Source of the DNA: Escherichia coli
GTDB lineage: Bacteria > Pseudomonadota > Gammaproteobacteria > Enterobacterales > Enterobacteriaceae
Strand: one strand, 5' to 3'
DNA: 64,000 nt
Assembly (NCBI RefSeq): GCF_003334785.1
Contig: NZ_QOWV01000011.1
The translations under genes were made by a program, and so were the position numbers. This document shows positions 41,935 to 43,702 of the stretch, one piece after another (the stretch's first letter is position 1; the number at the start of each line of letters is the position of its first letter). A model generated the notes under the pieces. That model ran no database searches, was not told where the DNA came from, and was given only the letters and a program-made list of their open reading frames with translations.

Positions 41935-42888
41935 TTAGAGTCTTTTTCGTACAGATGAACGGGGGATCTCTGGCTTCATTTCTTTTAACAGGTCTTTTTT
42001 CTCTCTTGCTGCGATATAAGAAAAAATCTTATCGGAGTCAGAACGCTGTCTGAGTATATCGTCGTCCATTCGGATACCATTTCGAATGAACCATTTCACA
42101 CTTTCTATGCCGGTGTAGATACCAATATGTTTATCATGATAACAATTATAAAACTGAACATGACTGATATCGGTATATTTTTTCAGTGAGGTAAAGAAGT
42201 ACTTCATGTTTTTGACATATAATGCGAAGGAACAGTGTTCAGCGATAAGGATATTACGCCCTTTTTCATGAAGCAAAGCAATTAGAGGCAAAGCCTCAGT
42301 TGAAACATGTTTAAATAATACTGGCGTGCTGTCTATTCTATCAACATGGCGTTTGAGGGCATTAATACTGAAATCATATATCCACCACTCGTTGTCAGTC
42401 GGAAGATCCAGCACCGCTTTGCCACCATAATCTCTGTGGTTTATGTCACACCCTTTATTTACCCAGTAATCAAAGACATCATGATCGAGGAGGTCATAAA
42501 GAAGCGTTTGTCCTTCGTTATCTGTGCTGTGGATATCAATGCCCGCGTTTATGAGGAGTTCCGCACAATCTATGGCGTAGCGCTGCCAGTGAAGACAGGA
42601 CTGGCCTTTATTATTTTTGTGGTGAACGTTAATACCTGACTTTATCAATAGCCTCACTGCACGTGGGCTTTTTCTGCTAAACAGGGCATTATTACCATAA
42701 CAATCTGTATGGTTCAGCGCTATGCCTGCTTCAATCATGGCTTTTAAAGCCCCGATACTGTCGCAACCGAAAAGGGCGTTTTCACCGTGTTCATTAAGTG
42801 TGTTAATGTCAATGCCTGCAGCAATGCAATTCTGGACGTCTTTTTTAGTTTTGCTGTCAAATAAATTATCTTCTGTATAGTTACTCAT
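41935..42888 (-). CDS. Ankyrin-repeat protein
   Basis: 317-aa ORF with at least four ankyrin-like repeats (G-xx-ALF...A...LI..G...N pattern) in the N-terminal half; C-terminal ~130 aa unassigned. Confidence 0.7.
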   Translation of the reverse strand: MSNYTEDNLFDSKTKKDVQNCIAAGIDINTLNEHGENALFGCDSIGALKAMIEAGIALNHTDCYGNNALFSRKSPRAVRLLIKSGINVHHKNNKGQSCLHWQRYAIDCAELLINAGIDIHSTDNEGQTLLYDLLDHDVFDYWVNKGCDINHRDYGGKAVLDLPTDNEWWIYDFSINALKRHVDRIDSTPVLFKHVSTEALPLIALLHEKGRNILIAEHCSFALYVKNMKYFFTSLKKYTDISHVQFYNCYHDKHIGIYTGIESVKWFIRNGIRMDDDILRQRSDSDKIFSYIAAREKKDLLKEMKPEIPRSSVRKRL

Positions 42889-42902
42889 GGGCGTTCTCCT
42901 TT

Positions 42903-43343
42903 TTAAGCGGTCGTTTTGTGCCAGGTATTATTGTTGTATTCATATTCTTTTATCTTAATGATCTCGTCATAGATCCGTGAAAAAGAAAACCATGAGATCT
43001 CTTTCACTTCGCCTTTTTTGTTTGTGTAAATGATATTGCAGCCACGAAAAGAAAATGACTGATAGAAAGTATCGTGATTCTCCTCTTTAAGAAAACGGGT
43101 AAAAGCTTTTATGGTGTCTTTTTTTTCCATGCTATAAGAGAAAAAGGTATGGATAGCAAATATGGTCAGAATATTTCTTTCCGTCACCATATGTCTGGAA
43201 AAATAATTAAGATAAAAAACATGATCTTCAATGCTATTTTTACAGAATATTGAAAAGTGAGGGTTATACAGACGGTAGAGATCTGTATTCTTTTTTGTTT
43301 TAGATAGGTAACTTGTCAGGGTTGAATAGTTTTGTTTTTTCAT
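42903..43343 (-). CDS. Hypothetical protein (146 aa), operonic with ankyrin protein
   Basis: AT-rich ORF 15 nt upstream of the ankyrin gene. Confidence 0.45.
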   Translation of the reverse strand: MKKQNYSTLTSYLSKTKKNTDLYRLYNPHFSIFCKNSIEDHVFYLNYFSRHMVTERNILTIFAIHTFFSYSMEKKDTIKAFTRFLKEENHDTFYQSFSFRGCNIIYTNKKGEVKEISWFSFSRIYDEIIKIKEYEYNNNTWHKTTA

Positions 43344-43345
43344 TT

Positions 43346-43702
43346 TTATTCTCCTTTATTATTTTGATGAAATGAATGTATATTATCAAATAAATAAAAA
43401 TCAAATTTATTTTTAATAATAAAAAATAAGCAAGCGTTTTCTTTTGAATAAACTAATTTAATGTGATGTTTTATATAAATAAATTCATAGTTTGCAAAAA
43501 GTGCTATTTTTATTTCATGGTTGATTGATGGGCGTTTTTCCCCATTGCTTAGGGGGAAATATATCCCATTAATATTAAATGTTTGAAGTGAATCGTATTT
43601 TAGCAGGGGAATATTATATCTTTTACTTCTGTTTTGATTTTCAACTTTGTGTGTGAGACACAATATGTGATAGTGTTGTGATAATCGTAAGTATCCTGCC
43701 AA
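43346..43702 (-). CDS. Hypothetical protein (118 aa)
   Basis: AT-rich ORF separated by 2 nt from the next gene. Confidence 0.45.
   Translation of the reverse strand: MAGYLRLSQHYHILCLTHKVENQNRSKRYNIPLLKYDSLQTFNINGIYFPLSNGEKRPSINHEIKIALFANYEFIYIKHHIKLVYSKENACLFFIIKNKFDFYLFDNIHSFHQNNKGE

Follow-up and report, generated by a model that had tools for sequence, protein, structure and literature searches.

Leading regions of plasmids are enriched in orphan methylases, toxin-antitoxin systems and anti-restriction genes (Samuel et al. 2024, PMC11541004). For the island SGI1, an island-encoded protein, CtiC, is reported to inhibit the assembly of the helper relaxosome (bioRxiv 10.1101/2025.04.21.649884). 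Cargo for defence, resistance and metabolism is transferred among enterobacteria by integrative mobilizable elements (IMEs); the accessory genes of their backbones are little known. Here a pair of such genes is described, which is located in a stretch of 64,000 nucleotides of Escherichia coli DNA (contig NZ_QOWV01000011.1 of assembly GCF_003334785.1), called the window in the following. The genes encode p146, a protein of 146 amino acids (aa), and Ank317, an ankyrin-repeat protein of 317 aa. They form an operon in the backbone of an IME, which we tentatively interpret as an operon for a binder acting in establishment or counter-defence. The pair is a candidate for a new class of establishment, counter-defence or helper-manipulating factor.

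An earlier note, made from the sequence of the window alone, had proposed an AT-rich operon of three closely spaced genes. All three open reading frames (ORFs) lie on the minus strand where that note had placed them, and both the close spacing and the richness in AT were confirmed, with a GC content of 35% across the three ORFs compared to 45% for the window, 32% for p146 and 16% for the leader upstream of p146. The region contains two real genes, p146 (42903–43343) and Ank317 (41935–42888), each preceded by a strong AGGAG ribosome-binding site and spaced 14 nucleotides apart. The third ORF (118 aa, 43346–43702, minus strand) is spurious, since it starts with TTG, is without RefSeq/PGAP annotation in an identical E. 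coli genome, and its frame is not conserved: tblastn similarity in 63%-diverged relatives consisted of two segments in different frames, with a 1-bp indel, and the homology of relatives ends halfway through the ORF, at about 43515. The proposal of a three-gene operon could therefore be retained with respect to positions, strand and base composition, without the 118-aa gene.

In a survey of 5,426 complete E. coli genomes, the allele of the window was present in 66, and was chromosomal every time; a related relaxase backbone was found in 168 genomes. Carriers were commensal and environmental E. coli, Klebsiella, Citrobacter and Enterobacter. Synteny was compared with relatives found in metagenomes and in genomes of E. 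coli, Citrobacter and Salmonella, whose Ank proteins were 41–86% identical to Ank317. Every relative examined had the same order, namely variable cargo, p146, Ank, a 135-aa accessory protein, a MOBP-type relaxase and three small envelope-type proteins of 90, 128 and 106 aa, beyond which AlpA and DUF6387 followed in those loci which reached that far. The cargo 5' of p146 consisted in relatives of an ars operon, a type ISP restriction enzyme, MarR with dehydrogenases, or phosphotransferase system genes; in the window there were restriction endonuclease remnants and a NACHT/RelA-SpoT pair. Since the gene order is constant while the upstream DNA differs each time, the pair belongs to the backbone of the IME, not to its cargo, and marks the cargo boundary.

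The N-terminal domain of Ank317 (residues 1–165; 42394–42888, minus strand) is a member of the ankyrin repeat superfamily, with 5–6 short repeats of 30–31 aa. Pfam model Ank_2 (PF12796) matched residues 73–153 with E=5e-6, models of single repeats matched weakly, and the protein has the three-dimensional arrangement of a stacked solenoid of helix-turn-helix/beta-hairpin repeats. The C-terminal half (residues 166–317; 41935–42393, minus strand) comprises an insert, a cryptic repeat, a long helix and a basic tail. It had no Pfam match and no PDB match in a profile search; a fold search with the model of whole Ank317 was dominated by ankyrin matches. Both the ankyrin repeats and the unassigned C-terminal region noticed earlier were therefore borne out. 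Only 30 representatives of the C-terminal-half profile were present among 1.84 billion proteins, and apart from this family the scan yielded ankyrin repeats alone. According to AF2 secondary structure, the insert (residues ~188–241) has the order beta-alpha-beta-alpha-beta; it is family-specific and the most variable segment. The cryptic ankyrin-like repeat (residues ~243–292), which is followed by the long helix, was recognised because the C-terminal profile matched large multi-repeat proteins many times; positions 84–133 of the profile matched these ankyrin giants, one of which was confirmed as ankyrin by Pfam. Residues 285–317 have a pI of 10.1, and the tail ends with [RK][RK]R[LMI], which is kept by most homologues. 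Neither a catalytic domain nor a consistent catalytic motif was found in Ank317; a possible Cys/His dyad, H194/C219, was dropped, since H194 is replaced in a subfamily of 412 aa. Ank317 should therefore act by binding, as an all-repeat binder without an enzyme domain.

Its partner, p146, belongs to an orphan family; it is small, cytoplasmic and basic (pI 9.3), and its basic N-terminus is almost invariant (MKKQN..YLSKTKKN.DLYRLYNP). A search for structural relatives gave none of significance, no effector domain was recognisable, and there were no functional matches in Pfam, NCBIfam or PHROG. It is possible that p146 is a winged-helix-like DNA binder and regulator. Plasmid relatives of this orphan-fold partner head orphan-methylase operons (see below).

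Upstream of p146, and identical with the 3' part of the 118-aa ORF, a conserved AT-rich non-coding element of ~170 bp is located (43344–43515, minus strand). Its identity to the IME relatives examined (loci L002–L006 and L018–L022) is 84.8–87.7%, in contrast to the saturated synonymous sites of the adjacent p146 (dS, synonymous divergence, ~1.9), and it is ~72–74% identical in a plasmid family where the p146 homologue is only ~45% identical. The conservation within the 118-aa ORF is one of DNA, not of protein. Single-stranded DNA (ssDNA) structure in this region did not exceed that of shuffled sequence (template strand of 43344–43530, z=0.01), RNA structure did not exceed that of shuffled controls (z -0.28), and no Rfam match was obtained for the element; an RNA leader was rejected for the latter two reasons. 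We read the element as a double-stranded promoter and operator region, which probably holds the promoter, with the motif AAAAATAAATTTGA at ~43401–43414, and the upstream regulator sites AGCACTTTTTG and AAAAGAAAACGCTTGC. The stand-alone genes of the paralogues Ank412 and Ank291, and also p146, are preceded by the motif AAAATAAATTTGA with a subsequent TTGATTATTGTTATT-like segment (L008, 2480–2530 and 4420–4470; L007, 7930–8000; window, 43401–43414), which points to a promoter or regulator shared by the entire set of Ank and p146 genes. The element also gives an entry point to the regulation of such modules.

At the other end, between Ank and the relaxosome genes, a terminator scan and an inverted repeat search showed a hairpin with 13-bp arms and a subsequent T-run (41832–41860, minus strand). 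In L022 and L020 the arms had changed in a compensatory manner, and L016 and L017 had other hairpins at this position; 3' of the hairpin lies a conserved TTGACT promoter, which serves the mobilization genes. Most simply, this structure would be the terminator of the operon, and it may also be an inverted repeat of the origin of transfer (oriT). If oriT were situated in the gap between Ank and the accessory protein, the direction of the pair relative to the relaxase would fit an anti-defence island, which is defined by encoding on the T-strand among the first ~30 ORFs of the leading side. The RP4-type nic sequence (YATCCTGY) was rejected as a locator of oriT, since its matches were uninformative and the sole nearby one, at 43692, is in non-conserved cargo DNA.

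Selection was estimated with the pairwise Nei-Gojobori method. Both genes are under purifying selection, with ratios of nonsynonymous to synonymous divergence (dN/dS) of 0.09–0.13 for p146 and 0.26–0.30 for the ankyrin domain. Values of dS for p146 were 1.6–2.2, compared to 0.08–0.48 for the flanking accessory gene; for the Ank repeats dS was 0.5–0.65 versus the closer alleles (L019, L022, L020) and saturated versus L002. A sharp break of identity occurs within the Ank gene at ~42167. The high dS and the intragenic break show that p146 and Ank are ancient alleles, which recombination has shuffled while the backbone around them is younger. Residues 161–240 of Ank317 fall into discrete types, being 89–98% identical within and 30–46% between types, and p146 alleles of 90% identity occur together with Ank types which are only 46% identical in this segment. 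The Ank types are thus partly uncoupled from the p146 alleles, which argues against an allele-specific p146-Ank complex and points to Ank as the specificity determinant.

Homologues of p146 (~45% identical), together with the same upstream element, are present in enterobacterial plasmids of 22–37 kb which encode DotA/TraY. There they are part of a co-directional array of LPD7, ArdC, RelE/NadS, Ank236, the p146 homologue and two orphan N6-adenine methylases; the ArdC was confirmed by its ArdcN (2.3e-10) and MPTase-PolyVal (1.7e-18) domains. A 124-aa gene 5' of Ank236 was considered as a relative of p146 and found to be unrelated. In some plasmids of this family two p146 paralogues flank the methylase. 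The family, with L023 (NZ_CP038594.1) and L014 (NZ_CP083799.1), is classified as 'non-mobilizable' by MOB-suite, yet possesses DotA/TraY, a DUF927 helicase and ParA; it could represent unrecognised conjugative elements or helpers of the island.

At further positions, the island family carries divergent Ank paralogues, which share the C-terminal region and the promoter motif AAAATAAATTTGA. Ank328 is located 5' of p146 in L016 and L025, and Ank412 adjoins a ParB/recombinase/integrase module in L024, which is also present in the island of the window; other paralogues stand alone beside an integrase or a Gabija-like OLD+UvrD pair. Among 50,697 phage records neither p146 nor Ank317 was found, and a phage origin of the pair was rejected on these grounds; the pair is restricted to conjugation-borne elements. 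In L017 (NZ_CP051706.1, 8189–8622), an island of this family that is more distant (relaxase ~72% identical), p146 is frameshifted, Ank is absent and there are other pseudogenes; the module is therefore lost as the element decays. A search of the literature yielded no paper mentioning these accessions, an ankyrin anti-defence protein or an ankyrin IME protein, and the PIME family was rejected as a match to the island, since it is a different kind of element.

The following mechanism could perhaps account for these data. The operon, which occupies the junction of variable cargo and relaxosome genes and has the direction of the latter, would be driven from the conserved AT-rich promoter element and would end at the covarying hairpin. 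We infer that p146 is probably a DNA-binding regulator which acts at the upstream element (43344–43515), and that Ank317 would bind another protein stoichiometrically, with binding regions that represent ancient, recombining specificity types. Ank317 could in this way sequester a variable host protein, e.g., a defence protein of the recipient cell, upon entry of the element into a new host or during its residence there. This assignment to establishment or counter-defence is tentative; it is based on the presence of a binder without an enzyme domain, the position in the backbone, the specificity types, the occurrence on conjugation-borne elements only, and the anti-restriction genes around the plasmid homologues of p146. 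The refuting conditions set by the earlier note did not apply, as profile searches supported the ankyrin repeats and the synteny was conserved in homologous islands. Its broad suggestion that the protein binds others within a conflict system is plausible; the context is more specific, the pair being part of an IME backbone beside the relaxase genes and not a free-standing defence cassette.

Several results weigh against this assignment. No known anti-defence protein is similar to the pair, and positive selection was not detected, pairwise dN/dS being <1 everywhere. A placement in a 'leading region' is an assumption, since the oriT of the element was not located; an RP4-like AATCCAG after the hairpin was not conserved in relatives. 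A Frpo-like ssDNA promoter in the upstream element had to be rejected, since folding was no better than that of shuffled sequence. Finally, stand-alone paralogues are situated in chromosomal mini-islands without mobilization genes and beside a Gabija-like OLD+UvrD pair, and these contexts fit a role in defence which is beneficial for the host at least as well.

A different target of Ank317 would be found in the helper plasmid. The protein could bind the coupling protein, the relaxase or a regulator of the helper, and thereby sense the helper or bias the mating channel towards the IME, with p146 as regulator and Ank types which match groups of helpers. The pair adjoins the relaxosome genes co-directionally in all IME relatives, the specificity types are discrete, the module is common to IMEs and the DotA/TraY plasmid family, and CtiC of SGI1 is a reported precedent. 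Such hijacking or control of mobilization is nevertheless rather doubtful, since Ank paralogues occur also far from mobilization genes, plasmid homologues of p146 precede methylases instead of transfer genes, and no helper element was identified.

It appears unlikely, and somewhat less probable than an action on the helper, that the pair is a two-gene defence system against phages or plasmids, with Ank317 sensing a protein of the invader by binding it and p146 serving as effector or regulator. The island is rich in defence genes, with the NACHT+RelA/SpoT pair, the restriction endonuclease remnant and a dCTP deaminase nearby, and Ank412 occurs beside a Gabija-like OLD+UvrD pair and in an integrase mini-island. 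However, the pair is conserved backbone while the adjacent defence cargo varies, neither protein has a recognisable effector domain, and the co-occurrence of p146 and Ank is not obligate. A PADLOC match to the candidate system PDC-M72A (3.1e-8) covers only 87 residues, namely residues 13–99 of Ank317 versus profile positions 274–366 of 392, and thus ankyrin repeats only; no PDC-M72 model matched p146, the 118-aa ORF, the 135-aa protein, the relaxase, the restriction endonuclease remnant or the NACHT protein. An identification of the module as PDC-M72 was therefore rejected, the match being partial and partner genes not being found among these six neighbours.

A variant of the counter-defence function, which we regard as improbable, is that Ank317 is an effector passing from bacterium to bacterium, carried by the type IV secretion system (T4SS) of a conjugative helper into the recipient with or before the island DNA. 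Positively charged C-terminal signals are a feature of substrates of VirB/D4 T4SS, and the basic C-terminal tail would be such a translocation signal; the ankyrin and beta/alpha surfaces would neutralise a defence protein or host factor of the recipient, and different targets would explain the discrete allelic types. If true, Ank317 would be the first case of an ankyrin-repeat protein used for counter-defence by conjugative elements.

Two close, co-directional genes on a mobile element could also suggest a toxin-antitoxin or addiction module which stabilises the island. This is very improbable, and a type II system was rejected, since the partners occur apart (Ank412 and Ank291 alone, p146 homologues with methylases), p146 alleles of 90% identity pair with Ank types which are only 46% identical in the variable segment, and no toxin or antitoxin family was matched. 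Delivery of Ank317 into eukaryotic host cells, as suggested by the earlier note, is hardly credible: ankyrin repeats are typical of effectors of intracellular bacteria, and the C-terminal P.RKRL resembles a monopartite nuclear localisation signal, but the weak NCBIfam matches to the Legionella Dot/Icm effectors AnkY/LegA9 and AnkH/LegA3 reached 25.5 and 22.4 bits versus equivalog cut-offs of 600 bits and concerned repeats only, carriers are commensal or environmental, no dedicated secretion system is linked, and the genes are tied to conjugative mobilization genes.

Neighbouring genes: The 135-aa protein (41326–41733, minus strand) is a putative relaxosome accessory protein, with a weak NikA-like Pfam match (E=0.14) and 97% identity to L002–L006; its gene has an ATGA overlap with the start of the relaxase gene. 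The MOBP-type relaxase (409 aa; 40100–41329, minus strand), annotated by PGAP as 'relaxase/mobilization nuclease', matched Bacteroid_MobB (1.2e-15) and TraI_MobP_relax (3.6e-14) of NCBIfam. Its C-terminus is a (PV)n dipeptide repeat (PVPVPVPVPVPVP), and the length of 409–425 aa among relatives suggests a repeat-length polymorphism. On the 3' side of the relaxase (38856–39914, minus strand) a 91-aa protein with zinc-ribbon and transmembrane segment, a 132-aa BamE-like lipoprotein and a 106-aa lipoprotein are encoded, which may act in the envelope or in exclusion. With a dS of 1.85 versus L002, the 91-aa gene represents a second hyper-divergent patch. An ORF-poor backbone region of ~970 bp (37250–38222) is 92–97% identical to L002, exceeding most flanking genes; a scan of it gave no convincing inverted repeat and no Rfam match. 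It could hold oriT or another cis element.

Within the cargo, directly 5' of the p146 leader, a C-terminal fragment of a DUF4928/type II restriction endonuclease is located (43925–44197, minus strand, and upstream to ~44500; PADLOC REase_II 7.5e-42), which is a decayed restriction-modification gene. On the plus strand (45028–48047) a NACHT-type STAND protein of 704 aa is encoded, whose C-terminus is pentapeptide-repeat-like (weak HalA/Qnr matches). Its gene overlaps by ATGA with that of an intact 301-aa protein with a RelA_SpoT domain (Pfam 7.8e-15), which is fragmented in strain 300709. PADLOC gave no match for the NACHT protein and only a weak PDC-S33 match for the RelA_SpoT protein. The NACHT protein and the alarmone-synthetase-like (toxSAS-type) protein are a candidate for a two-gene defence cargo.

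In comparison with known systems, the module resembles the anti-defence islands of leading regions, since it is found only on conjugation-borne elements, beside relaxosome genes and co-directional with them, and since the plasmid homologues of p146 belong to an array with ArdC, toxin-antitoxin and orphan methylase genes. It differs from them in that the neighbours of the pair in the IME itself are mobilization genes and variable cargo, that it matches no known anti-defence family and is without a Frpo-type ssDNA promoter, and that it resides on an integrated mobilizable island instead of a plasmid. Profiles of known anti-restriction families (ArdA, ArdB/KlcA, ArdC, Ocr and others) showed no homology in Pfam, NCBIfam or PHROG. 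With ArdC-type binders the module shares the vicinity, as plasmid genes of the p146 family are separated from a bona fide ArdC by no more than a few kb, and the predicted action of Ank317, stoichiometric binding early after entry, would be analogous; however, ArdC has ssDNA-binding and metalloprotease domains, neither of which is present in Ank317, and there is no sequence or structural homology. The placement of an island-encoded accessory protein with mobilization functions is shared with SGI1 CtiC; however, no homology is established, and no helper plasmid is known for the present island family. From ankyrin scaffolds such as ANK/DARPin-like proteins and immunity proteins, e.g., Bdellovibrio Bd3460, Ank317 is distinguished by its short repeats of 30–31 aa and by its family-specific C-terminal half with beta/alpha insert, cryptic repeat and basic tail. 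In its mode of action the module would come closest to the accessory factors of conjugative elements which are of the binder type, and we classify it among those accessory genes of mobilizable elements which serve conflict or establishment and use a common repeat as scaffold.

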